The notes under the pieces: model-generated
What the model saw: only the letters and a program-made list of their open reading frames with translations
The model's database searches: none
What the model was told of the DNA's origin: nothing
NCBI GenBank assembly: GCA_964385825.1
Contig: CAYLPX010000004.1
Span: 4,986-68,985 of the forward strand
Source of the DNA: an uncultured Candidatus Saccharibacteria bacterium
GTDB taxonomy: Bacteria > Patescibacteriota > Minisyncoccia > Phycocordibacterales > JAKFXT01
DNA length: 64,000 bases
Direction of reading: 5' to 3'
Shown: in pieces, positions 3,338 to 21,528 of the stretch
How positions within the stretch are numbered: position 1 is the first letter of the stretch
Layout: each line of letters begins with the position of its first letter
Made by a program: the position numbers and the translations under genes

Positions 3338-3358
3338 TGCGCGGCTGACCGGACTTGA
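3338..3358 (+). repeat. attL-like 21-bp direct repeat (copy of the tRNA-Asp 3' end) at the left end of island 1
   Basis: TGCGCGGCTGACCGGACTTGA is identical to 12685-12705, which overlaps the 3' end of tRNA-Asp. Confidence 0.8.
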
Positions 3359-3620
3359 GGGTCAAGTTTCTAAGCTCGTAGACTCGCTAAGAACTTCCTC
3401 CCCGGGCTCGCCGTCGCTTTGCGACATGGCTCCGCCTGTTCAAGTCCGGACGAAAATGAAGCAGTTCATTTTCTTCAGCCGCGCAAGCAAAAATCCCCTT
3501 TCGGGGATTTGCTTGCGCGGACTAGTGGATGATGTTAGAACTGGATTTGAGAGTAGAAATGACGCTACAATCTACATTCCAAACTTCAAATCACTAGAGT
3601 TATCATAATTAAACTCTATT

Positions 3621-4022
3621 TTAACTTTGAAAGTTAACCTCAAATGGATACATACCCATTCCACAAGTTCCTTGAAGTATGCCGAGTTTTTGATTTCCTA
3701 AATCTATATCAGTTGAGCCAGAGTTAGGGAGAGCTTTCGTGATATTCATACTTGGAATACGGATTGATGATGAGCAGTCAAAAGTTCCATTCGTATCAAA
3801 CCGTAAAACAGTTGGTATGTTTGCTTTTGCAACGCTTACTCTTGGCGTATAACCACCCTTTGCTTTGATTTCAATGATTTGTTTTCCATCTACAATACTT
3901 ACATTCTGCACATTTCCAGCTTCTTGTGTTGTATTTTGAGTTGTCGTGCCACCACCTTTAGTGAGCAGAATACCTCCTCCAATAAATACTCCTGCGATGA
4001 TAATAGCTATGGTTGTTTTCAT
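3621..4022 (-). CDS. secreted cupredoxin-like (putative copper-binding) protein
   Basis: Signal/TM MKTTIAIIIAGVF, then a beta-rich domain with the Cys/Met cluster GTCGMGMYPF. It is the last gene of the cop operon. Confidence 0.4.
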   Translation of the reverse strand: MKTTIAIIIAGVFIGGGILLTKGGGTTTQNTTQEAGNVQNVSIVDGKQIIEIKAKGGYTPRVSVAKANIPTVLRFDTNGTFDCSSSIRIPSMNITKALPNSGSTDIDLGNQKLGILQGTCGMGMYPFEVNFQS

Positions 4023-4035
4023 AAATGTAATTATA

Positions 4036-5055
4036 CTAAAAATTAAATACTGGCGGTATAGCTCCAATAACAACCAGTGCGTTAACAAGATTAAACAGTG
4101 CAAATAATATCACAATAAGTCCTGCGGATTTGAAAAATACGCCAGACTTTTTGCTATTTTGGATACTAAATGAACTAAAACTAATAAGGGCAAGTACTGG
4201 TAATGTGCCTAGAGCAAATGAGAGCATTGTAAGACCGCCTTTCAAAAAACTACCTGTAGTGAGAGTGTAGAGTTGCATTGACTGGGTAAACCCACAGGGC
4301 AAGAAGAATGTCCCAATGCCAACCAACAGGGGTGTTAGTGTGTGGTTCAAGTTTGAAATACTGTGAGCACGCTTTGAAATAAACTTTGGCATTGATGGTT
4401 GTAATTGTTTTGCCCAAGGAAATACATCAAGCAAGTTGATACCAAGTATAATCATTACAACTGCGATAATAAGACCGAGTATAAATGTTCCTGTTGTGCC
4501 AAGTGTAAACGCAGAGCCAATCGCACCTATAACACCCCCAAGAATGAAAAAGGCGACAATACGCCCTCCGTGAAACATAAGCTGTGGTTTTATTTTGTCT
4601 CCCTCTTTAGCAAATGTTGCAGACATAGAAAGAACTAATCCTCCTACAACCGCCATACAAGTAGAAAGTGAGGCAATGATACCTACAAAGAATGCCGTGC
4701 CATAAGTTACATTACCACCACCAACAAGATTGACGATGCCAAGTTTTTGTAGAAGCACAAACAAGAACGCAAAACCCACCGCAATGGGTATCGCAATTTT
4801 GAAATCAGACCACCTCTTTTGAATTAAATGCTTCTCAACTGATATTGTATATCCGTTATCTTTAACAAGCATAGTAAGTTCTTCTGCAATTTCTATGTCT
4901 GTTTTGTCTCCAAAATCACCAACAATTTCTACTGAATGATTTTTGAGTTTTGATATAACTTTACTTACATTCGGCAAGTCGCCAATTTTACTCTCTGTCA
5001 GAATGACGCAAGCGTTACAATGCATACCGTGAATGTGAAATGTATATGTTTTCAT
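4036..5055 (-). CDS. HMA-domain fused to a DsbD_2/CcdA-like polytopic membrane protein
   Basis: N-terminal GMHCNAC metal-binding motif, then ~8 TM segments carrying STCMAV and FLPCGF Cys motifs. Confidence 0.55.
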   Translation of the reverse strand: MKTYTFHIHGMHCNACVILTESKIGDLPNVSKVISKLKNHSVEIVGDFGDKTDIEIAEELTMLVKDNGYTISVEKHLIQKRWSDFKIAIPIAVGFAFLFVLLQKLGIVNLVGGGNVTYGTAFFVGIIASLSTCMAVVGGLVLSMSATFAKEGDKIKPQLMFHGGRIVAFFILGGVIGAIGSAFTLGTTGTFILGLIIAVVMIILGINLLDVFPWAKQLQPSMPKFISKRAHSISNLNHTLTPLLVGIGTFFLPCGFTQSMQLYTLTTGSFLKGGLTMLSFALGTLPVLALISFSSFSIQNSKKSGVFFKSAGLIVILFALFNLVNALVVIGAIPPVFNF

Positions 5056-5057
5056 AA

Positions 5058-7349
5058 TTACAGTTTCATATTTTTAATTCGCAATGAGTTTACAACGACC
5101 GTTACACTCTCAAACGCCATAATTGCTCCTGCTATGGCAGGACTTAATGTCCAGCCAAAGAAAGGAAAGAGTATGCCACCTGCTATCGGTATACCTACAG
5201 AGTTGTATCCGAAGGACCAGATAAGGTTCTGCCAGATTGTTTTATTCGTTCTCTGTGCAAGGTGTATAGCTTCGGCGACTTTTACAATATCGCCCTTTAA
5301 TATAACAATGTCGGAACTTTCAATGGCAATGTCCGAGCCATCACTCATAGATATAGCTACATCGGCTTGAGCAAGTGCGGGGGCATCATTTACACCATCA
5401 CCAACCATCGCTACTTTGAGACCTTTCTTCTGCAATTCTTTTACAATGTTCAACTTATCTTCTGGTTTTACATCAGAATACACTTCGTCTATACCTAGAC
5501 CCTTGGCGATTGCCTCACTTGTCGCTTTATGGTCGCCAGTTGCCATCACTACTTTTAATCCCAGCCCTTTTAGTTTAGTGATTTCATCTTTTGCCTCTGA
5601 TTTTATTGTGTCGTGTATTTTAATCAAAGAAAGAACTTCATTATCATCAGCGAGATAAAGTTCACGACCGCTTTCAAAACGAGTGTCATCGAAATCTTTT
5701 TTTACGGTTTCCTCAGATTGTTTGAGTACACTTGCAATATAGGCACGAGAGCCGAGATAGTATTTTTTGCTTTGATATATTGCAGTTACTCCCTTACCAG
5801 CAATTTCACTCAAATCATTAATAGGGAGTGGGGAGATATTATTTTCTTTGAGCCATAGTGCGACACTTTCGGATACTGGATGTTTGGAAGATTTCGTAAT
5901 TGCATAAATAAGTGATTGATTAAATGAAATATGCTCTGGTTCACAAATATGATTTTTATCCCTACAATACACACCCTCAATAGCGAGTTTATTGTGAGTA
6001 AGAGTGCCTGTTTTATCAAATACAATCGCAGTAACTTTTGCAAGCTTTTCCAAGCTCTCTGCATTTTTAATGAGTATTCCTCTCTCTGCTCCACGTCCTA
6101 CGCCTGTAATGATAGCTGTTGGAGTAGCGAGCCCTAGCGAACACGGACACGCAATAACAAGCACCGCCATTGTCGTAGAAATTGCATAAGCAAATGCTTT
6201 AGTAAGCCCTAAACTGGCAGGTCCAAATATCATCCAAGAGGCGAAAGTAAGTATTGCAATTCCAATTACTACATACACAAACACTCCCGATATTCTATCT
6301 GCTGTACGTTCAATCGGAGCTTTTGAGTTTTGTGCGTTTTCAACGATTGAAATTATATGAGCAAGTGCAGTATCTTTCGGGTCTTTAGTTACTTTGATAT
6401 GCAATATACCTTGAAAGTTTTGCGTGCCTGCAAAAACAGTATCATTTACTCCTTTATCTACGGGAATTGCTTCACCTGTGAGCGTTGCTTCATCAATTGA
6501 ACTTGAACCCTCTATGACTATGCCATCAAGTGGTATGCGTTCATTTGGTTTTACAATTACAACGTCCCCGATGTTCACCTTTTCAACAGGAACTTCAATT
6601 TCTTTACCATCACGAACAACCAGTGCTGTTTTACTAGCAAGTCCTGCAAGTTTTTGTAATGCTTCGTTGGTTTTTTTCTTTGCTTTTGCTTCAAGGTGTT
6701 GCCCGAATGCAATCAAACCTATAACAACAATCACGACATCGTAAAAGTTAGAAGTAGTATTTATGTAGGGTGCGAGCACTTTATCAAAAGCAGTGATAAT
6801 AAATGAATATATAAAAGCAACGATAGTTGAAATACCAACTAAGGTATCCATATTTGCTGTGCGAGTTTTCAAGAATATCCAAACAGCCCTTATATATTTT
6901 CTGCCGATACCAAACAGTATAAAAGTGGCAAAGATGGGCATTAAATGGTGAAAAACCTCATACACATTTTCAGACATAGCCCCAATAACATTATTATCAG
7001 CTAGAACCTGCCAGAGCATCATAATGAATGAAAAACCAACCATTGGTAGCACAAACTTCATCTCAAGACCCATATCTTTTTGTTCGTTTTCGGCCATCAT
7101 TTTCATATGGTCGTGCACATCACTTCCATCTATTTTTTTATCGGTATCTTCAAGGGTATAGCCAAATGGAGAAATAACACTACTTAGTGTTTTTGTATCA
7201 ATCTGGTTATTTTCAAAATTAATAACCGCTTTTTCTTGAGCTAATTTTACCGATACAGTGCTAACCCCTGCAACCTTCTTAAGTTTATCTTCTATAAGCA
7301 CGACACAACTCGCACAGTGCATACCTTTTACTTTGTATATATGTTCCAT
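5058..7349 (-). CDS. copA: copper-translocating P1B-type ATPase
   Basis: GMHCASC HMA motif, CPC in TM6, DKTGTLT phosphorylation site, GDGVNDAP hinge. 763 aa. Confidence 0.9.
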   Translation of the reverse strand: MEHIYKVKGMHCASCVVLIEDKLKKVAGVSTVSVKLAQEKAVINFENNQIDTKTLSSVISPFGYTLEDTDKKIDGSDVHDHMKMMAENEQKDMGLEMKFVLPMVGFSFIMMLWQVLADNNVIGAMSENVYEVFHHLMPIFATFILFGIGRKYIRAVWIFLKTRTANMDTLVGISTIVAFIYSFIITAFDKVLAPYINTTSNFYDVVIVVIGLIAFGQHLEAKAKKKTNEALQKLAGLASKTALVVRDGKEIEVPVEKVNIGDVVIVKPNERIPLDGIVIEGSSSIDEATLTGEAIPVDKGVNDTVFAGTQNFQGILHIKVTKDPKDTALAHIISIVENAQNSKAPIERTADRISGVFVYVVIGIAILTFASWMIFGPASLGLTKAFAYAISTTMAVLVIACPCSLGLATPTAIITGVGRGAERGILIKNAESLEKLAKVTAIVFDKTGTLTHNKLAIEGVYCRDKNHICEPEHISFNQSLIYAITKSSKHPVSESVALWLKENNISPLPINDLSEIAGKGVTAIYQSKKYYLGSRAYIASVLKQSEETVKKDFDDTRFESGRELYLADDNEVLSLIKIHDTIKSEAKDEITKLKGLGLKVVMATGDHKATSEAIAKGLGIDEVYSDVKPEDKLNIVKELQKKGLKVAMVGDGVNDAPALAQADVAISMSDGSDIAIESSDIVILKGDIVKVAEAIHLAQRTNKTIWQNLIWSFGYNSVGIPIAGGILFPFFGWTLSPAIAGAIMAFESVTVVVNSLRIKNMKL

Positions 7350-7353
7350 AGAA

Positions 7354-7629
7354 TTATTTTCGCTTAAGCTTATACACTTTTAATACTTCTTCTTTTGCTT
7401 TACCGACCTGCCCAGAAGACATCTGATGATGCACACAATGACTCAGATGGTTTTCAAGAAGAGCATCCTCAATACTTGAAAGACCTTGCTTTACTGCAGA
7501 GGTTTGAGTTATGACATCTATGCAATAGGTATCATTCTCAATTAATTTTTGTAACCCTCTTACTTGACCTTCAATCAGCTTAAGACGGCGAGTCATTTTT
7601 GCTTTATCTTTTTTGTCCATATATTTCAT
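7354..7629 (-). CDS. csoR: CsoR/RcnR-family copper-sensing repressor
   Basis: 91 aa with the Cys/His/Cys W-X-Y-Z signature (C...HCVHH). It lies directly upstream of copA. Confidence 0.8.
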   Translation of the reverse strand: MKYMDKKDKAKMTRRLKLIEGQVRGLQKLIENDTYCIDVITQTSAVKQGLSSIEDALLENHLSHCVHHQMSSGQVGKAKEEVLKVYKLKRK

Positions 7630-7641
7630 ACGGACAAGTTT

Positions 7642-7659
7642 ATACCCCTAGGGGGTATA
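7642..7659. promoter_or_regulatory. candidate CsoR operator (GC-tract palindrome)
   Basis: ATACCCC-TAG-GGGGTAT is a 7-bp inverted repeat of the TACCC..GGGTA type bound by CsoR repressors. It sits 15 nt upstream of the csoR start, in the divergent intergenic region. Confidence 0.6.
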
Positions 7660-7749
7660 TGTCAAAAATCACTTTAAGAATAACAGAAGCGATGATTTTT
7701 TTGTTATAAAAATGCTAAAATGACTAGGTTTTTATGAATTACTATTACT

Positions 7750-9030
7750 ATGAATAAATCTGTCTACAGTTACAAAGTACTTGAACTTATAGCCAAAGAA
7801 GTTGGTGGTTACTTCACTGGTTACGAAATTGTAAAAATCTTGGAAAAGATGGGGATACCCCGTGAAAAGATACAGTACCCAAATACAAAGTGGTGGACAA
7901 TAAATGAAGCTTTCAAATACATTAAGGAAACTGACACTGACCCCGAGAACACAATATCAAAGCTGATAATGGATTTTCTCCATCCACTAAACCATAATCT
8001 AAATGAGGAAAGTGCTGGAAAGCTGGCAGACAAACTTCAAAAATATCTGAAGTATGACAATTTTTATATAGAAGATACGGGTAGTGAATATCTGGTGCTT
8101 TCTGATGAAGAGATGGAGGAAATGCACGCTCACTCCCCAGAGGAAGAAGAGCGAAGTGATAAAGACAGAAAACTCTATGAAAAAAAGATAAAAGAAAGTG
8201 GAGATATTATAAAAGAACTTAGAGATAGCCATCAGATGTATATGGATATTGTTGAGATTTTTTGCCAAAACATCAAAAAACCAACAAAGGACCTAAACGA
8301 TGCGTATCTATTTCTCTCAAAAAACATTGAGGATGCGGTCAATAATTTGAGCTTTAAGCATTTCAAGTTACCTTTTTATAAACCCTTCAAAAATGATTTG
8401 TATTCAGCAGAGCTTGAATGGAATGGTACTGGCAATTTATCCGACTTACGACTGGGACCTCGCCTATCTTGGGATGTAGTGAGACCCTCTTTATATAGAA
8501 TGCATAGTGAAATAATAAAAATACAAAATCTTTCTGAAAGAGACACAGTATTGACTGACGAGGAAAAGAGACGGGAGGAAATAATAGAACTAATTTCTCA
8601 AAAAAGAGTGCAGAAAATACCCACAAATGAAATTGTTAAAAAAATGGAGATTTTGCACAAGTACGAAAAAACTACCCCAAGTTCGTTTTACGTTACAAAA
8701 AAAGACGATGACTTTTATTATAAAGGTCTTCACGTACTCGCTTCCAAGAAAAAAAATGACTACTACAAGGTCTTCTGCGCCCTATATGCAAAACTTCCCG
8801 AAGGTGGAGAAGTGCAATATAAGGAACTTATCGCCGAAATAAAAAGTCGTATGCCTGAACAGAAGAATAAAACTGTTGATGAGATGCGGAAGTTCATCCA
8901 AAGAAACCTCACGGATAGAAGTAATGGATTTATGAGATACGCCAAAATAGCTGAAACAGAAGATAACGGGAAGCCATTGATTTCTATATCTCGTGGCTCT
9001 GGCGTTGTCTTTAACAACAAGATGGGGTAA
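7750..9030 (+). CDS. hypothetical protein (426 aa) of unknown function; island 1 cargo
   Basis: Long ORF with an acidic low-complexity linker (SDEEMEEMHAHSPEEEERSDKDRK) between two domains. No recognisable motif. Confidence 0.5.
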   Translation: MNKSVYSYKVLELIAKEVGGYFTGYEIVKILEKMGIPREKIQYPNTKWWTINEAFKYIKETDTDPENTISKLIMDFLHPLNHNLNEESAGKLADKLQKYLKYDNFYIEDTGSEYLVLSDEEMEEMHAHSPEEEERSDKDRKLYEKKIKESGDIIKELRDSHQMYMDIVEIFCQNIKKPTKDLNDAYLFLSKNIEDAVNNLSFKHFKLPFYKPFKNDLYSAELEWNGTGNLSDLRLGPRLSWDVVRPSLYRMHSEIIKIQNLSERDTVLTDEEKRREEIIELISQKRVQKIPTNEIVKKMEILHKYEKTTPSSFYVTKKDDDFYYKGLHVLASKKKNDYYKVFCALYAKLPEGGEVQYKELIAEIKSRMPEQKNKTVDEMRKFIQRNLTDRSNGFMRYAKIAETEDNGKPLISISRGSGVVFNNKMG

Positions 9031-9205
9031 ATCCAACCTTTTCCTTAAAAATAAATAACTTGCCCTGAAAATAACGCCCAAAACAATGGGTGTTTTTTCA
9101 TTTTCAAGAAATCAAAAGAAATACGCAGAACACCCTAAAACAGCAAAAATCAAGATAGTGCATTAGTCGTTATGCACTGTCATTACAAACAATTACCCAA
9201 CCTAT

Positions 9206-9496
9206 ATGGCGAACAGGAAAGCAAAAAAGTCATCGGGGAATAACCAGTCATACCTTGATGACCCGTCTGTTGTTTTTACAACTTACGACCTCGGAGTATC
9301 AACCGCACTTTTATGTGCGGGTTTTGAGCTTTTGTCAGTAGATAGAAAGAACCAAAAGAAAGCGTTGTTCATCTTCAAAAAAGAAGAAGGGATTGAGGAG
9401 ACGGCAAACCGCTACTTCTCGGATAGATTAGATGTCAAAGCAAGGTCGTTCTTTGACCACCTCAAAGCACTCAAGAATAAACTCTATAGCGAATAA
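9206..9496 (+). CDS. DUF5659-like small protein
   Basis: TYDLGVSTALLCAGFELLSVDR...ALFIFKK resembles the DUF5659 family that is common on Patescibacteria mobile elements. Confidence 0.45.
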   Translation: MANRKAKKSSGNNQSYLDDPSVVFTTYDLGVSTALLCAGFELLSVDRKNQKKALFIFKKEEGIEETANRYFSDRLDVKARSFFDHLKALKNKLYSE

Positions 9497-9500
9497 CTCT

Positions 9501-9701
9501 ATGGTGTTGTCGGACGAAAACATTGTTAAGTTCCAAGCTCTCTACAAAGAGCATTTTGGAAAAGAAATCGGCAAAGAAGATGCCTACGAGCAAGGTATGA
9601 AACTTTTGCGATTAACTTCACTTTCCTATCGTCCAATGACGCTCACAGAACTTGAAGCAGTAAAAGCACGGCAAGCAGAACTTTTGCAAAAACAAAAATA
9701 A
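9501..9701 (+). CDS. small hypothetical protein with a homolog on island 2 (35185..35388)
   Basis: MVLSDENIVKFQALYKEHFGKEIGKEDAYEQGMKLLRL aligns with MLSPQAIEKYREIYKAEFGTDLTFDEASEQAQRFLNL. The start is set at the ATG at 9501, so as not to overlap the upstream gene. Confidence 0.5.
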   Translation: MVLSDENIVKFQALYKEHFGKEIGKEDAYEQGMKLLRLTSLSYRPMTLTELEAVKARQAELLQKQK

Positions 9702-9747
9702 ACTGCCGTGCAGGATTCCTTGAAATCCACCGCCAACAAAAATTACT

Positions 9748-10935
9748 ATGGATACAGTCATTATCAAAATATACGGACCGCATAAGTTCAAGATTTTGGA
9801 TAAATCACAATTTGTCCCTGAAATCGTAAGGCGAGAATATAACGACCTTTCGGCTACGGAAAAAGTATCACCAGTAAACCGAACTTACTTACGCCGTTTT
9901 GTACTTCATCCGAATTGGCACGAGCAATATCTGCCACGCGTTGAGATTTTTGAAGCATTAACCGAGGACCGAAAAAACATACGTTATATTCTCAAAGCTA
10001 CGTTTTCTGTCGCAAAATTGCTCTATTGGAATAGCTTGCAAGAGGTAGGCGAGAATGACAAACAAAAGGTAGTTTCTGCCTTAAAATCTGCGCTTGAGAT
10101 GGTTGGCATCATTGTAGACGTTGAAATAATTGAAAATGCCACAGTAGAAGCTGTGCACGCTTGCAAGAATATACCCTTGCCAAAAACAATGCAGATGCGA
10201 GAGATAATCAATGAACTTGCAAAAATAGATATAAATAAAGCATTTGATATAAGCGAGAAACAATGCAAAAAAGGTGCGCGAGTGCTTAATATCTACTCTG
10301 GAACTATAGATTGGTCTTTTTACGATAAGATTTCTGACTCATTGCGACCAAAAAACAAACGGAACGATAAGAGCCATATAGGCCACGAAAGAAGCGTAAT
10401 TGAGCGATACAACTTACAAGAGCGAGAGGTATTTCGGTATGAATATCGCATAAAGAAAACTCAAACAACTAAGCGAGAGATAAATACCCTGCTCGGTAGA
10501 GAATACTCAACACAAGTCGTTTTCAAAGACCTCTTCACTCCAAATCTTCTGAAAACACTTGTTCTTAATTCTTGGCACGCGCTCATAGAAAGACCTGAAA
10601 ACCAGATTTCACTTTTTAGCACTATTGATAAACTTGGACTTTTCCTACACATACTCTCCGAAGCAAAGAAGCGAGGTGAAAAAGCCCACAGTATGAATAA
10701 TGCTCTTATATCCTACGGACTGGCAACGGCAATACGGGACCACGGAGCAAAGGAAGTGCGAGGGGCGATATTTGATGTGTGGAGTAACAGTCATTCCGAA
10801 CGATTGACCAAAAAAATAGAGCTATCATCAGAATTAACAAAGAGGTTGCCATATTCAAACAACATAACTTTCATTGATACAGCTCTTGAAAGATACGAGC
10901 TTATCACCTTAACTTCACTGGAAAATGGCGTATAA
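9748..10935 (+). CDS. hypothetical protein, possibly a rolling-circle replication initiator (Rep_trans-like)
   Basis: 395 aa. FYDK and FRYEYRIKK elements are reminiscent of the Tyr-containing catalytic motifs of Rep_trans proteins. The assignment is weak. Confidence 0.3.
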   Translation: MDTVIIKIYGPHKFKILDKSQFVPEIVRREYNDLSATEKVSPVNRTYLRRFVLHPNWHEQYLPRVEIFEALTEDRKNIRYILKATFSVAKLLYWNSLQEVGENDKQKVVSALKSALEMVGIIVDVEIIENATVEAVHACKNIPLPKTMQMREIINELAKIDINKAFDISEKQCKKGARVLNIYSGTIDWSFYDKISDSLRPKNKRNDKSHIGHERSVIERYNLQEREVFRYEYRIKKTQTTKREINTLLGREYSTQVVFKDLFTPNLLKTLVLNSWHALIERPENQISLFSTIDKLGLFLHILSEAKKRGEKAHSMNNALISYGLATAIRDHGAKEVRGAIFDVWSNSHSERLTKKIELSSELTKRLPYSNNITFIDTALERYELITLTSLENGV

Positions 10936-11084
10936 TGTACTTGTTGACCCAGTTAGGCATAATAAACGCGAGGTATTTTTATTGGACGAAATAGTACCCG
11001 AAAGGGGCGGTCTGCCAACTATCCGTTCAATCCTCGCGATTGCCTATAGCTGGGTCAACCAGACCGTCCCTTTCGGGTTTTTAT

Positions 11085-12695
11085 ATGAATACAGATAAAA
11101 CAAAAATTAAATACTTTCTCTATGCTCGGAAATCGTCCGAGAGTGAGGACAGACAAGTCCAATCAATCGGCGACCAAACAGACCGCATTACAAAACTTGC
11201 GGAAGACGAAAAGTTGGATGTTTTTGAAATCCTCTCGGAAGCTAAGTCAGCGAAAAATCCAAACAATCGTCCTATTTTTGACAAAATGCTTGAGCGGATT
11301 GAAAAAGGAGAAGCGAACGGCATTTTATGTTGGGAAATCAATCGTCTTTCACGCAATCCAGTTGATAGCGGAAAAATACAGTGGCTATTACAACAAGGAA
11401 TTATAAAATCAATCAGAACTATAAATCGTGAGTACAAACCAGACGATAATGCTCTACTTTTGAGTGTTGAGAGTGGGTCAGCTAATCAATTTATTCTGGA
11501 CTTAAAGAAAGGGGTAAAGAGAGGTATTGATAGCAAACTTGAAAAAGGGATGGCTCCTATAATGGCACCTCTTGGATACCTCAATACAAAGATAGAAATA
11601 CGCGGTGAGAATTACATTACAAAAGACCCAGAACGTTTCGCTATCTTGCGCAGAATGTGGGATATGATGCTTACAGGAAACTTTACTCCACCAAAGATAC
11701 GCGACATTGCAAATAATGAGTGGGGCTTACGAACACGCAAGATGAGACGAAGAGGTTCAAAGCCAATTTCCCGAAGTACCATTTATCGCATTTTCACAGA
11801 CCCATTCTATATAGGACTTTTTCAATACGGCGGAAAAACATATCAAGGAAAACATGAAGCGATGGTTACACTTGAAGAATATGACCGAGTGCAAATACTT
11901 CTTGGCAGAGAAGGCAGACCACGACCAAAGGTACACGAGTTTCCTTATACTGGCGTTATACGATGTGGCGAGTGCGGAAGTATGATTACTGCGATTGAAA
12001 AAACAAAGATAATAAAAAAGACGGGGGAACTAAAAACGTTTACTTACTATTATTGCTCCCGCAAAAAAGAAGGTGTGCCGTGTACACAGAATGTATACGT
12101 GAATGGTGAATTGATGAGTGAGCAAATTGAACGAGAAGTTATGAAGATTTCTATTCTGCCCGATTTCAAAAACTGGGCTTTGGAAATCCTAAACCAAAGC
12201 AACGATAAAGAAGTTGACGAGAGAGCCAAAGTATACGAAACGCAACAAAAAGCTCTTGCGGAAACTCAACGTCAACTGGATACGCTAACTAAGATGCGTT
12301 ATCGCGAACTTATTGATGACAACTCATTTATAAAAGAACGAGACGAACTAAAGGCAACAATCACCACACTCAAAAAGAACTTGCTTGAAACCGAAAGCCG
12401 AGCCGACAAGTGGTTAGAACTTACGGAAAAGACCTTTGTATTTGCCCTCTACGCACATAGCTCATTCCTAAACGGCGACATCCAAACCAAAAAAGAGATA
12501 CTTATGGCACTTGGGCAGAACTACACGCTAAAAGACCAAAAACTCGTTATAGTGCCTAACGAATGGCTGAAACCAATCATTGAACAGTATCCAGCGATGG
12601 AAAAAGAATATAAACGGCAAGAACTGAAAAATAACAAGAAACCATATAGACAAAAAGACGCTTTCGCGTCTCTTCGTCCCTTACTGCGCGGCTGA
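11085..12695 (+). CDS. large serine recombinase (resolvase N-domain + recombinase domain + zinc ribbon)
   Basis: YARKSSESEDRQVQSIGDQ catalytic-Ser N-terminus, ILCWEINRLSRN, and a CGECGS...YYYCSRKK zinc ribbon. The stop TGA lies inside the att repeat and the ORF overlaps the tRNA-Asp 3' end by 9 nt. Confidence 0.85.
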   Translation: MNTDKTKIKYFLYARKSSESEDRQVQSIGDQTDRITKLAEDEKLDVFEILSEAKSAKNPNNRPIFDKMLERIEKGEANGILCWEINRLSRNPVDSGKIQWLLQQGIIKSIRTINREYKPDDNALLLSVESGSANQFILDLKKGVKRGIDSKLEKGMAPIMAPLGYLNTKIEIRGENYITKDPERFAILRRMWDMMLTGNFTPPKIRDIANNEWGLRTRKMRRRGSKPISRSTIYRIFTDPFYIGLFQYGGKTYQGKHEAMVTLEEYDRVQILLGREGRPRPKVHEFPYTGVIRCGECGSMITAIEKTKIIKKTGELKTFTYYYCSRKKEGVPCTQNVYVNGELMSEQIEREVMKISILPDFKNWALEILNQSNDKEVDERAKVYETQQKALAETQRQLDTLTKMRYRELIDDNSFIKERDELKATITTLKKNLLETESRADKWLELTEKTFVFALYAHSSFLNGDIQTKKEILMALGQNYTLKDQKLVIVPNEWLKPIIEQYPAMEKEYKRQELKNNKKPYRQKDAFASLRPLLRG

Positions 12696-12705
12696 CCGGA
12701 CTTGA
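12685..12705 (+). repeat. attR-like 21-bp direct repeat (the genuine 3' end of tRNA-Asp)
   Basis: Identical to 3338-3358. Confidence 0.8.
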
Positions 12706-12760
12706 ACCGGCAACCTCTCGCGTGACAGGCGAGTGCTCTAACCAGTTGAGCTACAACCGC
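12687..12760 (-). tRNA. tRNA-Asp (anticodon GUC)
   Basis: GCGGTTG TA GCTC AACTGGTT AGAGC A CTCGC CTGTCAC GCGAG AGGTT GCCGG TTCAAGT CCGGT CAGCCGC G. CCA is not encoded. Confidence 0.85.
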
Positions 12761-12797
12761 ATTTTTTTCCGAATGCCCTATGCTTTCGCATAGCTCG

Positions 12798-12871
12798 GGT
12801 GCCGATGGGTGGAATCGGACCACCGTTTAGGGCTTATGAGTCCCTCGTTCTAACCATTGAACTACACCGGC
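12798..12871 (-). tRNA. tRNA with CAU anticodon (elongator Met or Ile2) and an unusual T-loop
   Basis: GCCGGTG TA GTTC AATGGTT AGAAC G AGGGA CTCATAA GCCCT AAAC GGTGG TCCGATT CCACC CATCGGC A. G1-C72 pairs, so it is not an initiator. The T-loop has C at position 55 and there is one A-G mismatch in the anticodon stem. Confidence 0.6.
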
Positions 12872-12967
12872 AAAGTAAAACAAAACTAACACGAAAATGG
12901 GGATAATTCAATTGGGCGGCTCAGCGACAAGCACTCGCTCCGCTCGTCTTGTATACCGCTTCCGTCT

Positions 12968-13081
12968 TGCAAGTCCAGTCGTAAAAAGCCTTAGCTTTTT
13001 ACTCCTCTCCGCAACAAGTATGTAAAATGCCTTCATGTTATGAAGGCATTTTACATACTTGTTGCGGGGGCTGGACTTGCA
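12968..13081. repeat. nested palindromic structure: an 11-bp outer inverted repeat enclosing a 9-bp hairpin and a 28-bp perfect hairpin
   Basis: TGCAAGTCCAG (12968-12978) pairs with CTGGACTTGCA (13071-13081). Inside are GTAAAAAGC-CTTA-GCTTTTTAC (12982-13003) and the 59-nt perfect hairpin at 13009-13067, with 28-bp arms and a 3-nt loop (arms CCGCAACAAGTATGTAAAATGCCTTCAT/ATGAAGGCATTTTACATACTTGTTGCGG). Confidence 0.8.
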
Positions 13082-13140
13082 CCAACATCTCAAGGTTATG
13101 AGCCTTACGAATTACTATTACTCTACCCCGCTATATGTGA
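13069..13140 (-). other. degenerate tRNA-like element (CAU anticodon stem-loop and T-arm intact; D-arm and acceptor not canonical)
   Basis: Revcomp is GCGGGGTAGAGTAATAGTAATTCG TAAGG CTCATAA CCTTG AGAT GTTGG TGCAAGT CCAGC CCCCGCAAC. Its T-arm forms one arm of the outer inverted repeat above. Confidence 0.4.
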
Positions 13141-13193
13141 GGACTCCCTCTTGAGAAGCCCATAGTAACAGAAAAGTGCGTTTTGGCAACCCT

Positions 13194-13814
13194 CTATATA
13201 TACTGAAACTCCCGAAACACCTCTTCGTATAGATTTAAAATATGTCGCATTTCACGCTCGGAAAGTTCAAATGAAGATCCCTCATGGGCTATGGCGTTAC
13301 GTGTACGATGGGCCTCCCAGGCCTTATCAATAGTCTTAAAATCTCCTCGATCAACCCTTTTCAAACGCTCGCCGAGCGTATCACCAAGTTCAGAAAAACG
13401 CTCATACACTAACTCATCTAGAATAATATCTGCCTCAAGTATGGCCAGTCTCCATTCATGGGGATTTTGCGAAGCCACGTGCCCTTGTACCTGCTGCCAC
13501 TTATGGAACCCTGGCGCAAAATTACTTTCTCCATGTGCCTCCAAACGATGCCAGTAATTATGCTCAGCATCGTGCATAGCTATATTTTCAGCAGTACGAA
13601 TCTGATACAACCTAAATAAGCTGTAGAAAATAGCAATAAGAAGAAAAATGGAAGCGCAGGTAGAAACAAAAGCAAAAGTAAGGTACGCGTTTTTCCAAAC
13701 CGCTACTATTTCTTCTTTGTGTGCGAGAGCGTCACTTCCACCTGTAGTGAAAAGACCGTAAATCCACACAAAAATAGATTCAATATCGAGGGACGGAACA
13801 TTGGTAATTTCCAT
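13194..13814 (-). CDS. membrane-anchored protein with a C-terminal DUF4145/HEPN-like domain
   Basis: Two TM helices, then a C-terminal region with the R-x4-H motif (HRTRNAIAHEG) that is diagnostic of the HEPN/DUF4145 fold. Confidence 0.4.
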   Translation of the reverse strand: MEITNVPSLDIESIFVWIYGLFTTGGSDALAHKEEIVAVWKNAYLTFAFVSTCASIFLLIAIFYSLFRLYQIRTAENIAMHDAEHNYWHRLEAHGESNFAPGFHKWQQVQGHVASQNPHEWRLAILEADIILDELVYERFSELGDTLGERLKRVDRGDFKTIDKAWEAHRTRNAIAHEGSSFELSEREMRHILNLYEEVFREFQYI

Positions 13815-13833
13815 ACCCCTATTCTACCAAGAC

Positions 13834-15258
13834 TTAGGCCTCTCCGAGAAATTTTTTACCCATATCAAAAAGGGTAGTTTCAGTAAGTGGAGCTCCCATA
13901 AGTTGAACTCCGAGTGGAAGTTGCTTGCCAGCAATTGCAGCAAAGCCAGAGGGCACGGAAAGAGCGGGGATACCAGCGATGTTTGCAGGCGTCGTGAATA
14001 TATCAGCCAAGTACATAGTTACCGGATCGTCGATCTTCTCCCCTATTTTAAATGCTGGAGCTGGAGTTGTAGGAGTGAGGACCACATCAACCCCACTATC
14101 AAACACTTTTTTAAAATCTTGCTTAATAAGTTCTCGCACCTGAAGAGCTTTGTAGTAATATGCATCATAGTATCCTGCCGACAGCACGTAGGTACCAAGA
14201 AGAATGCGTCGTCGCACCTCCTGTCCGAAACCTTCGCCGCGTGACTTTTTGTAATCATCTAGCAGTGTCTCGCTTTCAACATGAAGTCCATAGCGTACTC
14301 CATCAAAACGTGCCAAGTTAGTAGAGCTCTCAGCTGGCATAATGATGTAATACACTGGCAACGAATAATCTATATTTGGCAATTCAATATCACGCACCTC
14401 ACAGCCAAGCGCTTTAAAGCGGTTAATCGCTTCTTTAAAATTAAGTAGCACCTCTTCACTCAATCCCTTTTCCAAAAAATGCCAAGGCACTCCGATAGTA
14501 TACGAACTTTTAACTTGTGCCTTTTCATACAGACTATCACTAAGTGAAGTGCTGTCTTGTGGATCTTCCCCCTTCAAAATATCAAAAAGTAGTTCTGCAT
14601 CCGCCACACTAGTAGTCATGGGACCAATCTGATCAAGCGAAGACCCCATCGCCATAAGACCAAAACGAGAAATAGCTCCATACGTTGGTTTAAGCCCCAC
14701 AAGTCCACAAAAACTAGCTGGCTGACGTACTGACCCACCCGTATCTGAACCAAGTGCAGCGAGGGCTCCGCCCATAGCAACAGCCGCGGCTGATCCGCCA
14801 GAGGATCCCCCTGAAACCCTTTCTCTATCATGTGGGTTCCGAGTCACACCGTAGGCAGAGTTCTCTGTTGAGCCACCCATGGCGAATTCGTCCATATTTG
14901 TCCGCCCGATAAAAATAGCTCCCTCAGCCTTTAGTTTCTTAATAGCAGTAGCGTCATACGTTGCAACATAATTTTCCAAAATCTTGGAGGAAGCCCCTGC
15001 ATGCTTCCCCTCAATTAAAATATTGTCTTTAATAGCAAGTGGTATACCCAAAAGGCGCCCCTTATTACCCTCTTTCCTCTTTTGATCAGCCTCTATAGCC
15101 TGCTCCCTTGCATCAGCAAAAACTTCTCGGTACGCATTAATATCCGGATTATCTTTAGCAAGTACCTCAAGGTACTGCTCCATGAGCGAAAGCGCAGTAA
15201 GGCTACCTCCTTCAAGTAAGGCTTTTGCTTCAGTAATTGTCTTAGGAATCGTGGCCAT
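13834..15258 (-). CDS. gatA: Asp-tRNA(Asn)/Glu-tRNA(Gln) amidotransferase subunit A
   Basis: Amidase signature GGSSGGSAAAVA and Ser-cisSer-Lys triad context. 474 aa. Confidence 0.9.
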   Translation of the reverse strand: MATIPKTITEAKALLEGGSLTALSLMEQYLEVLAKDNPDINAYREVFADAREQAIEADQKRKEGNKGRLLGIPLAIKDNILIEGKHAGASSKILENYVATYDATAIKKLKAEGAIFIGRTNMDEFAMGGSTENSAYGVTRNPHDRERVSGGSSGGSAAAVAMGGALAALGSDTGGSVRQPASFCGLVGLKPTYGAISRFGLMAMGSSLDQIGPMTTSVADAELLFDILKGEDPQDSTSLSDSLYEKAQVKSSYTIGVPWHFLEKGLSEEVLLNFKEAINRFKALGCEVRDIELPNIDYSLPVYYIIMPAESSTNLARFDGVRYGLHVESETLLDDYKKSRGEGFGQEVRRRILLGTYVLSAGYYDAYYYKALQVRELIKQDFKKVFDSGVDVVLTPTTPAPAFKIGEKIDDPVTMYLADIFTTPANIAGIPALSVPSGFAAIAGKQLPLGVQLMGAPLTETTLFDMGKKFLGEA

Positions 15259-15261
15259 GGT

Positions 15262-15546
15262 TTACAATATTTTTTTCACTACCACATAGGATTCCCTACG
15301 CCGTGGGGCCTGTCCCACAATAGCCTCTGTATAAAGTCCTGCTTCATGGGGGTCAGTATCGTCCCGTAATACATTTTTAGGGATAATAGTATCTGTTATG
15401 GTAACCTCCGCACTTGGGGCATTTTGTAACATAGAAATATAGGCCACGATAGACTCAATGTCCTTGCGTAGTTTTTCCTTTTCCCCCTCTTCTATGTGCA
15501 ACCTTGAAAGGAGTGCTATTTTATCTAGTTCTTTTGGATCAATCAT
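15262..15546 (-). CDS. gatC: amidotransferase subunit C
   Basis: 94-aa protein immediately upstream of gatA with GatC-like MIDPKELDKIALLSRLHIEEGE. Confidence 0.75.
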   Translation of the reverse strand: MIDPKELDKIALLSRLHIEEGEKEKLRKDIESIVAYISMLQNAPSAEVTITDTIIPKNVLRDDTDPHEAGLYTEAIVGQAPRRRESYVVVKKIL

Positions 15547-15596
15547 TGTGGGCTATCATAGCGTACTTCAAAATATCTCGCTAGCTAGACCTCTAC

Positions 15597-17627
<2,031 letters not shown>

Positions 17628-17660
17628 TTAGCGAATTCAGAGACTAAGTGCCAGAAAGGA

Positions 17661-18206
17661 CTATTGAAGGATAATCTGAATCGTACGCTCCACACGTCGC
17701 GGGTTAGTGGTATCACAGGTGTTATAGCCACGGGAGGTTACGGTGGTTACCACCACTCCCCCTGTGTACTGCTTTAAAACCTCAACAGAAGCACAGTATC
17801 TACCAGTAATAAGATTAAAAGCTGAATTCGTAATAGTACCTTTTGAAGCGATAGCAATCGGTCCGCCAAGACATTGTATAGTTGGCAGGCTTGCGCCGAC
17901 TATTTTCTGTCGATTACTATTCGCGTAATCAATAGCTGTTCCCCCCGATGGTATACCTGGCTCTCCAGTAGCGTCTCCCACATTAAAAGCGCTACCTGAC
18001 CCATCGTCTCCCCCAGGGTAATACTTACGCTCCCAATAAAGAGCACATTCAGCTCCCGTATCAGCTGAGTAAAAAGCAGCTTGAGAATCTTTACCAATGG
18101 AAGAAAGGGTTAGTTGTGTGTACGCAATTTTAAAAATAGTAGCTCCAATAACCAAAAAGAGGCTGGAGGTCAGAATTGCAATAAGTAATGTAAAGCCTTT
18201 TTTCAT
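17661..18206 (-). CDS. pilin-like (minor pilin/pseudopilin) protein
   Basis: N-terminal MKKGFTLLIAIL resembles a class-III prepilin signal peptide (G|FTL) followed by a hydrophobic helix. Confidence 0.5.
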   Translation of the reverse strand: MKKGFTLLIAILTSSLFLVIGATIFKIAYTQLTLSSIGKDSQAAFYSADTGAECALYWERKYYPGGDDGSGSAFNVGDATGEPGIPSGGTAIDYANSNRQKIVGASLPTIQCLGGPIAIASKGTITNSAFNLITGRYCASVEVLKQYTGGVVVTTVTSRGYNTCDTTNPRRVERTIQIILQ

Positions 18207-18207
18207 A

Positions 18208-18828
18208 TTAATTCCATTTGAATATTTTTTCGCGAGCTGAAACCGTATGACTATAGTTGCCCGTCTTCCAAGTCACGATGGAAGAAACTTCCGCTTCTTG
18301 ATCTGCCACCTGCTCAACTACGCTAATAGAGCGAACAAAAGTAGTCTGACCCCAATTAGCATTCCCAGCAGCTGTATCATAGCCATACTCTCTTATACCT
18401 CCTTCCCCTGTTGAATCGAAGATATTGAGCGCAGGGCAGGTACTACTGTCGAGTGGGTTAGTACAAGCAGTGGCAGGGTTAGAGAGAATATTTTTCTGAT
18501 TGATGTAACAAAACTTTTCTTGTTCATTGTTATATGATTTAGCAACACAGTTACTAAACCCTGTATTTAAACTACTACTAAGCCAAGTACTCCCATTTAA
18601 AATATTTGAATCACGGATTAAGCGGACCATTTCAACCCCCTCTTGAGCCAAATACTGAGCGGTTACTTGATCCTTAGCCACATTCGCTGTTGCGATACTA
18701 TCTGACACCATGGTAAGTGGCGCCACCACCGCAAGCAGCAGTACTGAAATGGCAACCAATGTTTCAACTAAGGTGAAGGCTTTCTTATGCTGCGTTGGTG
18801 TTTTGAGCTTATACATATTAGATATCAA
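18208..18828 (-). CDS. prepilin-type N-terminal cleavage/methylation domain protein (minor pilin)
   Basis: KAFTLVETLVAISVLLLAVV prepilin signature. Confidence 0.65.
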   Translation of the reverse strand: MISNMYKLKTPTQHKKAFTLVETLVAISVLLLAVVAPLTMVSDSIATANVAKDQVTAQYLAQEGVEMVRLIRDSNILNGSTWLSSSLNTGFSNCVAKSYNNEQEKFCYINQKNILSNPATACTNPLDSSTCPALNIFDSTGEGGIREYGYDTAAGNANWGQTTFVRSISVVEQVADQEAEVSSIVTWKTGNYSHTVSAREKIFKWN

Positions 18829-19462
18829 GGTTACGCTGTGTAGCTCGTGTTTGAATTGCGAAATTTACGCGACGAGGATCACCACTCGCTGCGGAAGTTA
18901 CAAAAGCATAACCAGAAAGATTTATACGAACACTGGCTTGAATCTTATCGCCATTACCTGATCCCTGGAGGTCAAAATTAAGAAATTGAATTTTAATTTC
19001 AGGGGCAGTAATAGGCGCAAACACGCAGTTACCACTTGCTGGATCCTGCCTACATCGAAGTACTGTATTGTTAGTAGCATCAAACGCGTACGCAATAACA
19101 GGATTAGGAAAGGCTGCATTAGTAACATCATCTGACTTAAAAGCGAGGAGATTTCCGCCGACTGGATTCGCACAATTGTTAGGATTTGTTCCGCCAGTAT
19201 AGATAGAACCCGCAACGTAAGTTGCTCCTACTTCACAATGATAACTAGTTCCCGTACGAATATTGCGCACCATACTTTCCATAGTAGAACTTAAGTTATT
19301 AATAGCTGATTGTTGTGCCTGCGACTTTTTGTTTAAATTCACAATAGAAAGTAGTGCCCCCGTTGCTATAAACATAACGACCGCAAAAAGGCCGACCGCC
19401 ACAATGAGCTCAGCTAACGTAAAACCTCTTTGTTGTAACTGTTTACTCCACATACCTAACAA
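18818..19462 (-). CDS. prepilin-type minor pilin
   Basis: RGFTLAELIVAVGLFAVV prepilin signature. Confidence 0.65.
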   Translation of the reverse strand: MLGMWSKQLQQRGFTLAELIVAVGLFAVVMFIATGALLSIVNLNKKSQAQQSAINNLSSTMESMVRNIRTGTSYHCEVGATYVAGSIYTGGTNPNNCANPVGGNLLAFKSDDVTNAAFPNPVIAYAFDATNNTVLRCRQDPASGNCVFAPITAPEIKIQFLNFDLQGSGNGDKIQASVRINLSGYAFVTSAASGDPRRVNFAIQTRATQRNLDI

Positions 19463-20109
19463 TTACCACCCGACTTAACGGAAGTCTGTCCAATACTATT
19501 AATTATCACGCACCGGGACTCTGAAGCGCTTGAATCAGCTTTTAATACAATTTTAATACTTGAAATGCCGGCTATGTTCGTAGTGTTTTTAAACACCAGC
19601 GGTTCTGGGTTCGGGCGCCTAAAAATAATAGTAGCCTTATCGTACGTACCCACCGTGTTGCACTGATATGCTCCCCCATTAATAGAGAAGCAGATATCTG
19701 AGATACGTATATCGCGTACAAAAGTAGAAGTGGTCATAATTTCAGAAACATCATAGTTAGAGTCACTGTTTACATCAGCAAAGAGCGTAAAGCTTTTAGA
19801 ATTTGCCTTATCAAAATACATGCCATACCCGATCTGGTATGCAGTCCTACCACTGACTGTTGCTCCCTCAGTACCAAAGGCACCTATAGTTACTTTGCGT
19901 GAAGCCACACCGAACACCTGTGCCTGGCGGATAGTAAGCGCCACCTCATAAGCAGAGTTAGTAAGAAGAATGCTGGAATTAAACTTAGAGTTCTGATAGA
20001 GCACCACTGACGTAATAATCATAAAAATAGAGACCGTCACCATAAGCTCAACTAAGGTAAAAGCCTTTTTGTCTTTGTATGTGCGAAACATGGTTAGTGG
20101 TAGGTGCAT
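19456..20109 (-). CDS. prepilin-type minor pilin
   Basis: KAFTLVELMVTVSIFMII prepilin signature. Confidence 0.65.
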   Translation of the reverse strand: MHLPLTMFRTYKDKKAFTLVELMVTVSIFMIITSVVLYQNSKFNSSILLTNSAYEVALTIRQAQVFGVASRKVTIGAFGTEGATVSGRTAYQIGYGMYFDKANSKSFTLFADVNSDSNYDVSEIMTTSTFVRDIRISDICFSINGGAYQCNTVGTYDKATIIFRRPNPEPLVFKNTTNIAGISSIKIVLKADSSASESRCVIINSIGQTSVKSGGNC

Positions 20110-20118
20110 ATATACTAA

Positions 20119-20955
20119 CTAAAACCCAAGCGCATGAAGCGAGAAAATATCTAGCGGGTAGAAAAATACTAGTATCGTTGCACCAATAAGGAATGGCGCA
20201 AAGGGTACCTCACTTTTCATTGTAAGGTGTAAGCCCTGTAAGAACAAGAAAGATATCCTCCTTTTCTCACTTAGTTTAGCTAGGCCAAGAAAAGCAAGTG
20301 TCACAATCGCACCAACCCAAAAAGCTATAGCAAAAGCCGAGAGGCCTCCTGCAATTCCCAATAAGAATCCCATGCCAATGGCAAGTTTCCCATCCCCAAG
20401 TCCGATCAGCCGGCCGTTTGAAAAAAACCAGAGCAAGAAGAAGGGTAGGAAAAAGAGTGGACCAGCTATAAGCTGATCGTATTGCACAATAAAATCATAT
20501 CCACCACGATAAAAATAAACATTCCAAAGTGCTAACAATAAAGTTAGGCCATTAAAGGTCCAGACAAGTCCATCGGGTATTATTTTGTGCCGAATATCGT
20601 ACACAGTAATAACAATAAGAATCGGAAATATAATGAAATATAGTGGGGCAGTAAAAAGTGAAAAGCTGTGATAGGCCTCCCAAGCAAGCACATAAAAAAG
20701 AATCCCTGTTACAAGTTCAACCAAGGGGTACTGCCAAGAAATTTTGGCATGACAATTACTACATTTGCCTTGTAAAACTAAGAAGCTAAAGAGGGGAAAA
20801 AGCTCCCAAAAATGTAATATTTTGCCACAGGTAAAACATTGGGAGCGACCAGAAAAGAAAGACAGTCCAGTCCCGTAACGGAGTATGACCACATTAAGAA
20901 AGCTCCCCACACAAAGCCCGAGTGCAAAAAAGAATATATAGTAGATCGAAAGCAT
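20119..20955 (-). CDS. pilD: type IV prepilin peptidase (A24 family)
   Basis: N-terminal CxxC...CxxC zinc knuckle (CFTCGK...CSNCHAK), polytopic membrane protein, conserved Asp-containing motifs. 278 aa. Confidence 0.85.
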   Translation of the reverse strand: MLSIYYIFFFALGLCVGSFLNVVILRYGTGLSFFSGRSQCFTCGKILHFWELFPLFSFLVLQGKCSNCHAKISWQYPLVELVTGILFYVLAWEAYHSFSLFTAPLYFIIFPILIVITVYDIRHKIIPDGLVWTFNGLTLLLALWNVYFYRGGYDFIVQYDQLIAGPLFFLPFFLLWFFSNGRLIGLGDGKLAIGMGFLLGIAGGLSAFAIAFWVGAIVTLAFLGLAKLSEKRRISFLFLQGLHLTMKSEVPFAPFLIGATILVFFYPLDIFSLHALGF

Positions 20956-21010
20956 TGCCCTAAGTATAACCTTTAACCAACTACAAAAGAATATCTGTAA
21001 AAAAACAAAA

Positions 21011-21042
21011 ACCGAAGGGAATCCTTCGGTTTTTGTTTTTTT
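21011..21042. terminator. bidirectional rho-independent terminator between pilD and the pilin array
   Basis: ACCGAAGG-GAAT-CCTTCGGT stem followed by TTTTTGTTTTTTT and preceded by AAAAACAAAA. Confidence 0.75.
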
Positions 21043-21053
21043 AGACTTGAAGT

Positions 21054-21509: not shown

Positions 21510-21528
21510 ACTTCTAGATAATTAATTA

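Follow-up and report, generated by a model that had tools for sequence, protein, structure and literature searches.

Here we describe an integrative element in a 64,000-nucleotide stretch of contig CAYLPX010000004.1 from an uncultured Candidatus Saccharibacteria bacterium (the window). The window contains the 21-mer TGCGCGGCTGACCGGACTTGA only at 3338-3358 and 12685-12705, even when up to three mismatches are allowed, and no such repeat is expected in shuffled sequence. The right copy corresponds to the 3′ end, as far as the T-loop, of a tRNA-Asp(GUC) gene called by ARAGORN and Rfam on the minus strand (12686/7-12760). A large serine recombinase gene (11085-12695, plus strand) runs into this tRNA gene from the opposite side, and its stop codon (12693-12695) falls within the right copy. 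Between the repeats are a copper module, a protein of unknown function, several small genes and a gene for a protein with a Rep_trans-like fold, with G+C at 0.33-0.42, slightly below the 0.43-0.48 of the right flank. The original prediction read the whole interval as one 9.4-kb element bounded by the 21-bp repeats as attL and attR. It is partly supported: the element is real and its cargo was well described, the rarity of the repeat, its tRNA origin and the position of the recombinase stop all being as stated, but the boundaries were misplaced. Three features had been overlooked, namely a partial 7-nucleotide copy of the repeat (TGCGCGG, 3514-3520), an inverted, split copy of the 21-mer (TTCAAGTCCGG at 3439-3449 and TCAGCCGCGCA at 3475-3485), and a continuation of the recombinase frame at 3521-3608. 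The flagged interval is very likely a composite of a serine-recombinase element and a separate small insert, which we call the X module.

The integrated form of the recombinase has 536 amino acids and the C-terminus ..LRPLLRG. It carries a resolvase catalytic domain (PF00239, E 3.8e-17) followed by Recombinase (PF07508, E 4.6e-09) and zinc-ribbon (PF13408, E 4.3e-08) domains, the order expected of large serine recombinases, and the domain set is that of the elements phiC31, Bxb1, A118, TP901-1, SCCmec Ccr and XisF. The serine nucleophile lies in the motif YARKSSESEDRQ, and R15, S17 and Q24 are invariant in 30 relatives. Against PHROGs the protein matches the integrase family phrog_95 (E 5.4e-63), and against NCBIfam it matches XisF and CcrB/C weakly. 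It reaches an identity of only about 23% to any phage recombinase in INPHARED. Its relatives number in the thousands, with approximately 60% identity still found at rank 120, and the few that are named come mostly from Patescibacteria.

The attachment sites were placed by comparison with 80 related loci, referred to below, like other contigs, by L numbers. Homology between the window and related elements starts not at 3338 but 175 bp inside the 21-mer, at 3508 (L032, L028) or 3513 (L036). At this point lies TGCGCGG (3514-3520, plus strand), the same as the last 7 nucleotides at the tRNA-Asp end, and we assign it as the attL core; the attR core is at 12685-12691 (plus strand). The P′ arm (ACTAGTGGATGATGTTAGAAC, 3521-3541) follows the attL core and contains a left-end motif (GTGGAYGAYGTTAGAAC, 3525-3541) that recurs, without a change of strand, 8-11.5 kb upstream of the recombinase. 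In 16 elements, the 6-8 nucleotides immediately before this motif match the end of the cognate tRNA: TGCGCGG for Asp, TGGGGTG for His, TTGGCAGG for Trp, TGGTAC for Lys, and TGGCTC or TGGCTG for Gln and Asn. Cores of 6-8 bp have the short length characteristic of large serine recombinase attachment sites, and a shared core of 7 bp is ordinary for these enzymes. Measured from core to core, the elements span 7.9-11.5 kb, and the one in the window is 9,171 bp (3514-12691) rather than 9.4 kb. The length of the 21-bp repeats had been thought puzzling for a serine recombinase, but that puzzle was misplaced, since the enzyme's own core is 7 bp and the longer repeat belongs to the X module.

The core lies within the recombinase gene itself. 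The segment from 3521 to 3608 (plus strand) comprises the P′ arm and a detached 3′ end of the gene, which encodes LVDDVRTGFESRNDATIYIPNFKSLELS followed by a stop codon. When the right and left ends are joined at the core, the recombinase frame stays open for a further 22-30 codons in 15/15 elements with both ends available, and the restored tail has the consensus (L/V)V(D/N/E)xVRTxF(E/Q)xxN(D/E)xxIYIP. For the window, joining yields a protein of 564 amino acids that ends in ..LRPLLRGLVDDVRTGFESRNDATIYIPNFKSLELS (that is, ..GLVDDVRTGFESRNDATIYIPNFKSLELS), with its last 28 residues supplied from the P′ arm side. Codon entropy across the tail is 0.95 at position 3, compared with 0.44 at position 1 and 0.25 at position 2, and the terminal IYIP is spelled by many synonymous codons. 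Because third positions are the most variable and the IYIP codons are synonymous, selection acts on the tail protein and not on a DNA site alone.

The joined form also exists in natural DNA. Contigs L109, L111 and L112 each hold it with a full-length recombinase gene, and none of the three has a tRNA; protein P0016 is likewise a joined, full-length recombinase. L109 was found by a pattern scan built to match only P-core-P′ junctions, while L111 and L112 are the contigs of the long-form proteins P0022 and P0109, which were already among the listed homologues. Since the joined frame retains a conserved tail and joined DNA occurs naturally, we conclude that attP lies inside the recombinase gene. 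The in-frame tail across the junction, present in all 15 elements and in the three natural contigs, corresponds to the partitioning known from SSV-type elements, with attP in the integrase frame and the gene split by integration.

Several related loci have a more complicated arrangement. In L073, a 759-kb contig, a tailed full-length recombinase (..WGHIVEVVRT..) and directly after it a copper module occupy 10001-16073; an attP-type junction inside a chromosome suggests elements in tandem. Two left-end sites, each with core and P′ motif, lie upstream of a single recombinase in L032 (1139/2063), L035 (97/919), L043 (518/3110) and L063 (452/1233). These doubled left ends look like element remnants accreting at one tRNA, and simple attP × attB integration does not account for their formation. 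In L108 (632-671) and L110 (961-1000), a 40-nucleotide relic of the recombinase 3′ end, comprising hairpin and P arm, is fused to a core and P′ motif with no recombinase gene. A tRNA-Asn is 1.8 kb away from this relic, which is apparently what remains of a decayed element whose terminator was kept.

The X module is a tRNA-flanking insert of about 175 bp (3338-3513) outside the unit that the recombinase mobilises. It opens with the 21-nucleotide tRNA-Asp 3′-end copy (3338-3358), and its inner part contains GCTCGCCGTCGCT (3406-3418). There follow the T-loop and T-stem in inverted orientation (3439-3449), a hairpin (3450-3474), the acceptor strand, likewise inverted (3475-3485), and a second hairpin, AAAAATCCCC-TTTC-GGGGATTT (about 3489-3510), directly adjoining the attL core. 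Loci L028, L032, L037, L092, L040 and L103 share this layout to the left of attL. Copies with no recombinase also lie downstream of tRNA-Met, one in the window (about 12912-13060), one in L029 and two in L037, and downstream of tRNA-Leu in L058, L067, L095 and L100. In the window, tRNA-Met is at 13061-13132, and its X module (12912-13060) comprises the T arm copied in inverted orientation (12967-12978), a hairpin (12982-13001), the acceptor, also as an inverted copy, and a perfect 45-nucleotide hairpin (13016-13060); this region accounts for a 59-nucleotide self-inverted blastn match. The module is not conserved at orthologous tRNA-Met genes. The repeat in L029 is 41 nucleotides long and reaches 22 nucleotides past the tRNA, and the inverted copy in L040 agrees with the present tRNA rather than with the displaced fragment. 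By our count, X modules lie at 7/16 recombinase-occupied sites and at roughly 8 of 100 other tRNAs.

X gave no Rfam match even at a permissive threshold. ARAGORN in its tRNA, intron and tmRNA modes returned two low-threshold intron-mode calls (tRNA-Gly and tRNA-Lys), which we treated as spurious, and a five-sequence alifold gave no convincing structure. A tRNA pseudogene, a tmRNA, a miniature inverted-repeat transposable element, a symmetry partner of attB and a decayed recombinase element were each considered, and none fits all features. X resembles a very small insertion in the T-loop region that supplies a new tRNA 3′ end together with a terminator.

The position of the 7-bp core bears directly on how the 21-bp repeats are to be read. 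If the whole of 3338-12705 were one element with these repeats as attL and attR, the circle junction would read CCCTTAC-TGCGCGGCTGACCGGACTTGA-GGGTCAAG (in longer form, CCCTTAC-TGCGCGGCTGACCGGACTTGA-GGGTCAAGTTTC) and include 3359-3513, and the empty site would read TTGATTT-TGCGCGGCTGACCGGACTTGA-ACCGGC (in longer form, GTTGATTT-TGCGCGGCTGACCGGACTTGA-ACCGGCAACC). The perfection of the repeat, far above chance, speaks for this arrangement, as do the tRNA-derived repeats of 14-24 bp that flank L028, L032, L037 and L092. Exact and mismatch-tolerant searches of the 80 loci, however, found long tRNA-derived repeats within 10 kb upstream in only these four and the window, and no such repeat occurs in at least nine related elements for which a left end was identified. 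The repeat of L032 is set apart from the element by a second left-end copy and approximately 900 bp, and repeat-bearing modules stand at tRNAs with no recombinase, including the tRNA-Met of this window. With homology between elements beginning at the 7-bp core and the conserved tail restored only by a junction there, we regard the 21-bp repeats as extremely improbable attachment sites of the recombinase. It is nearly as hard to credit that X and the element move as one unit, with an unlinked enzyme such as a tyrosine integrase acting in trans on the 21-bp identity in the T-loop. Tyrosine-integrase islands classically show identity that spans the stretch between the tRNA 3′ end and the T-loop (Islander, PMC4383910), and X is enriched at occupied sites, but the interval encodes no tyrosine recombinase, X modules also stand alone, and the recombinase's own junction leaves X out.

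A less remote alternative, although still an unlikely one, is a fixed, dead island, in which loss of the tail upon integration has inactivated the recombinase and the copper genes are in effect chromosomal. Integration does remove a conserved stretch of 28 residues, the element is integrated in every contig of this strain, and SSV-type integrases with attP in their frame are disrupted by integration (PMC7253208). The integrated copy nonetheless retains all three Pfam domains, and the tail segment at 3521-3608 is still open and near the family consensus. Integrated recombinase frames are intact in approximately 80 species-level genomes, and joined forms occur naturally. Near-identical cargo also lies alongside different recombinases, which implies ongoing exchange.

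We therefore strongly favor an element that is inserted in tRNA-Asp, has attP in its own recombinase gene, and sits on a pre-existing X module. X (3338-3513), with its displaced 21-nucleotide copy of the tRNA end, would already have been downstream of tRNA-Asp when the recombinase inserted the element into the last 7 bp (TGCGCGG) of the gene. The predicted attB is CGGGGATTTGCT-TGCGCGG-CTGACCGGACTTGAACCGG (GATTTGCT-TGCGCGG-CTGACCGG), and the predicted attP junction is GTCTCTTCGTCCCTTAC-TGCGCGG-ACTAGTGGATGATGTTAGAAC (CCCTTAC-TGCGCGG-ACTAGTGGATG). In the free form, the 3′ coding end of the recombinase gene (..CTTCGTCCCTTAC) would serve as the P arm and ACTAGTGGATGATGTTAGAAC.. as the P′ arm. Integration would split the gene and leave the 536-residue product, whereas an excised circle would restore all 564 residues. 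The tRNA sequence would stay complete and gain a terminator-like hairpin from the strand opposite the recombinase gene. The excised element would probably replicate as a rolling circle through the 395-amino-acid protein with the Rep_trans fold, and the cargo is predicted to be a CsoR-repressed operon for copper export and handling. The site positions, the split frame, the choice of tRNA targets throughout the family, and the folds and domains are shown by the analysis; current mobility, replication, termination at the hairpin and resistance to copper are predicted from them.

Several observations weigh against this account. The att arms are inverted only imperfectly (GTnCAC-like), with the symmetry judged by eye, although short identity with imperfectly inverted arms is also usual for large serine recombinase systems. 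L109 was examined for a terminal overlap, and its circularity was not demonstrable. Joined junctions also occur within chromosomes as tandem arrays (L073). Among 27 contigs retrieved with the recombinase, the left-flank LprI protein and a 206-amino-acid protein of the right flank, there was no empty site or circle of this element; in all of them the element is integrated or the contig is broken at the repeats. A degenerate 44-nucleotide pattern covering four junction types went unmatched in a metagenome collection, which therefore lacks the source samples, since the known attL and attR went unmatched as well. Finally, the 395-amino-acid protein had no match in Pfam (including PF02486), PHROGs, NCBIfam, PDB sequences or PLSDB plasmids.

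The contigs of the same strain (L002-L011, L016-L020) end or diverge at approximately 7846, 9255-9380, 12714-12739 and 3369-3472. At 3369-3472 and 12714-12739 the break points match the position of the repeated 21-mer, and those at 7846 and 9255-9380 may be population cargo variants or chimeric assemblies. The ends of L005, L010 and L011 differ from the window and look like chimeras or cargo variants.

Insertion at tRNA genes is a property of the whole family. When one genome per species was scanned, 394 loci were confirmed to encode the recombinase, and the 80 loci analysed were fetched from these. In 66/80, the recombinase frame is convergent into a tRNA gene and overlaps it by 9-179 nucleotides. 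The targets are His (26 loci), Asp, Asn, Gln, Trp, Ser, Met, Glu and Lys. Among the 14 loci with no tRNA call, at least six read as tRNA-Asp or tRNA-Asn 3′ ends that break off at the anticodon region, and several others reach the contig end. The recombinase-adjacent tRNA-Asp/Asn genes missed by ARAGORN are in L028 (11601-12036), L029 (11600-12770), L050, L068, L089 and L099. Group I introns were recently reported for tRNA-Asp/Asn in Patescibacteria (PMC13011429), and the breaks, judged from sequence, are consistent with such introns. The nearest relative of a recombinase is at the same tRNA type in 54/73 cases, as against 21% by chance. Even so, recombinases that are 83-85% identical occupy different tRNAs in L049/L099, L054/L084 and L079/L099 (Gln versus Asn, Asp versus His), which points to easy retargeting. 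Mageeney et al. (2020) found serine integrases at tRNA genes in 14/297 islands and called this previously unreported (PMC7192596). We found no description of the present recombinase family in the literature searched. The element belongs to a widespread and undescribed family in Patescibacteria, made up of small, integrative and probably replicative elements whose serine recombinase targets tRNA 3′ ends.

A further family-wide feature lies inside the recombinase coding sequence. On the tRNA strand, the window has an intrinsic-terminator-like hairpin, AGACGC-GAAA-GCGTCT, followed by a T run (12648-12679, minus strand). It was also called, at 12679-12648 of the minus strand, by a terminator scan, and the plus-strand form reads AAAAA-GACGC-TTTC-GCGTC.. 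(12652-12671). Every family member has the hairpin with its preceding A run 10-25 nucleotides before the tRNA end. Across 67 sequences, scored for the structure that we had named, 72.8% of cells were paired as compared with 55.5% in shuffles. Covariation was 0.484 versus 0.201, was reached by 0/500 shuffles, and was at most 0.18 with the partners slid; double changes are present at each of the seven pairs. Because the register shifts, RNAalifold gave no consensus for the hairpin. We infer that the element's hairpin replaces the terminator displaced from the tRNA, which would partly account for the conserved ..EAFASLRP.. peptide. One DNA segment would then have three roles, as protein, att arm and putative terminator.

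The copper module occupies the left part of the element on the minus strand and was named correctly in the original prediction, as confirmed with Pfam. It comprises a cupredoxin-like protein of 133 amino acids (3621-4022), a 339-amino-acid membrane protein with HMA and DsbD_2 domains (4036-5055), a 763-amino-acid CopA-type P1B ATPase (5058-7349) and a CsoR-family repressor of 91 amino acids (7354-7629; PF02583, E 5.9e-24). The ATPase contains an N-terminal CASC, TGE, CPC at 401, DKTGT at 445 and GDGVND. Upstream of csoR, a perfect 8-3-8 palindrome, TATACCCC-TAG-GGGGTATA (7641-7659), is a candidate CsoR operator, as had been proposed. Like CsoR-CopA operons, the module combines a repressor, a P1B ATPase with the CPC and DKTGT motifs of Cu(I) transporters, an HMA domain and a GC-rich, operator-like palindrome upstream of csoR, so that its sequence corresponds to that of a copper operon. 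Unlike the usual CsoR-CopA operons, it is here carried as cargo by a mobile element. In L032, whose recombinase is just 69% identical, the module has 92% amino acid identity, and it is also present in L104, a tRNA-His element, and in L073; it therefore moves between elements. The cargo of other relatives varies and includes type III restriction-modification genes and HTH_17 proteins.

The remaining genes are on the plus strand. A 426-amino-acid protein of unknown function (7750-9030) has weak relatives in nine related elements. It is followed by the family core genes, a DUF5659 protein (9206-9496; 49-53/80 loci depending on the method), whose domain assignment Pfam confirmed, and a 66-amino-acid protein (9501-9701; 59-60/80 loci depending on the method). 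A 57-amino-acid protein (10925-11098) overlaps the start of the recombinase gene and, by position, is a candidate accessory or directionality factor; the 66-amino-acid and DUF5659 proteins are further positional candidates for a directionality factor. Small proteins, including the 57-amino-acid one, are part of the family core directly upstream of the recombinase. The position between them and the other core genes is taken in 34 loci by a Toprim primase-NTPase of approximately 725 amino acids with a P-loop region and in eight, including the window, by the 395-amino-acid protein (9748-10935). The proposed Rep_trans likeness of the latter stands at the level of the predicted fold, which matches Rep_trans in a fold search, but not at that of sequence, since the Pfam Rep_trans profile does not match. 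Y231 and Y233, within FRYEYR, are invariant and are candidates for the catalytic tyrosine. Unlike RepC and RepD of pT181 and pC221, the protein has an extra helical C-terminal domain and no match at the sequence level. From its modeled fold, it is a probable rolling-circle replication initiator. An inovirus or prophage identity was rejected, as no ORF had a structural or packaging match in Pfam or PHROGs.

SSV1 also has a tRNA gene as its target. Like the "suicidal" integrases of the SSV type found in archaeal viruses and plasmids (PMC7253208), the recombinase described here has its recombination site in its own frame and the gene is split. SSV-type integrases are archaeal tyrosine recombinases cut into two inactive halves, whereas the bacterial serine recombinase loses only a tail of 22-30 amino acids and keeps all recognised domains, so it is not a member of that family. 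Like Islander and TIGER tRNA islands, the element uses a tRNA 3′ end, leaves the tRNA intact and has its recombinase gene at the tRNA end. The Islander pattern, an intact tRNA at one end with a displaced 3′ fragment at the other, is formally present through the 21-mer, but the fragment is that of the X module; the tyrosine integrase is absent, there being no Phage_integrase domain in the ORFs of the interval. Unlike those islands, the element uses a serine recombinase with a repeat of its own of 7 bp, and the long repeat is not its product. Tycheposons of Prochlorococcus, 27/937 of which use a large serine recombinase (bioRxiv 10.1101/2020.12.28.424599), are likewise small cargo elements by tRNA genes with a site-specific recombinase and replication genes, which in tycheposons include primases and helicases. 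Going by their description, they differ in host phylum and in the core, which here is DUF5659, the 66-amino-acid protein, and a Toprim primase or Rep_trans-fold protein. Among large serine recombinases, the family stands apart in targeting tRNA 3′ ends throughout (cf. PMC7192596) and in having attP within the reading frame, with the target's terminator-like hairpin antisense in the coding sequence.

Beyond the element, the right flank (13834-22695) contains GatC/GatA, an NAD-dependent ligase and, accompanied by a prepilin peptidase, an extended series of type IV pilin-like (N_methyl) genes, a context typical of a small Patescibacteria genome. A LOOT RNA (RF03000) lies at 36174-36294 on the plus strand, with 69.7 bits against a gathering score of 46.4, and a tRNA-Ile with anticodon TAT lies at 46995-47068. 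The TAT anticodon is an uncommon bacterial way of reading AUA.

For the insertion of large DNA into genomes, large serine recombinases are the principal tools. In nature they were believed to avoid tRNA genes almost completely as targets, and this clade does the opposite on the scale of hundreds of species-level genomes, thousands of proteins and at least nine tRNA species. Because the short core changes along with the target and closely related members occupy different tRNAs, it offers a natural series for studying specificity change. The split gene, a bacterial serine counterpart of the SSV layout, offers a testable idea that ties directionality to the state of the element. The tail of the full-length, episomal enzyme (VxDVRT..IYIP) may be needed for integration or bias the enzyme toward it, and the integrated, tail-less enzyme may be either inactive or adapted to excision. 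By recognizing features that all tRNA 3′ ends have in common, the family may be able to hop between tRNAs with few changes, a reading drawn from the 83-85% identical recombinases at different tRNAs. X modules could be mini-elements that copy tRNA ends, or tRNA-mimic RNAs, and act as preferred landing sites. Taken together, a state-sensing split gene, a tRNA-hopping family and X as a new class of mini-element or landing site form a picture that we put forward tentatively, as a possibility we do not favor. The elements themselves show that cargo, including copper resistance and restriction-modification genes, is exchanged among the tiny genomes of Patescibacteria.

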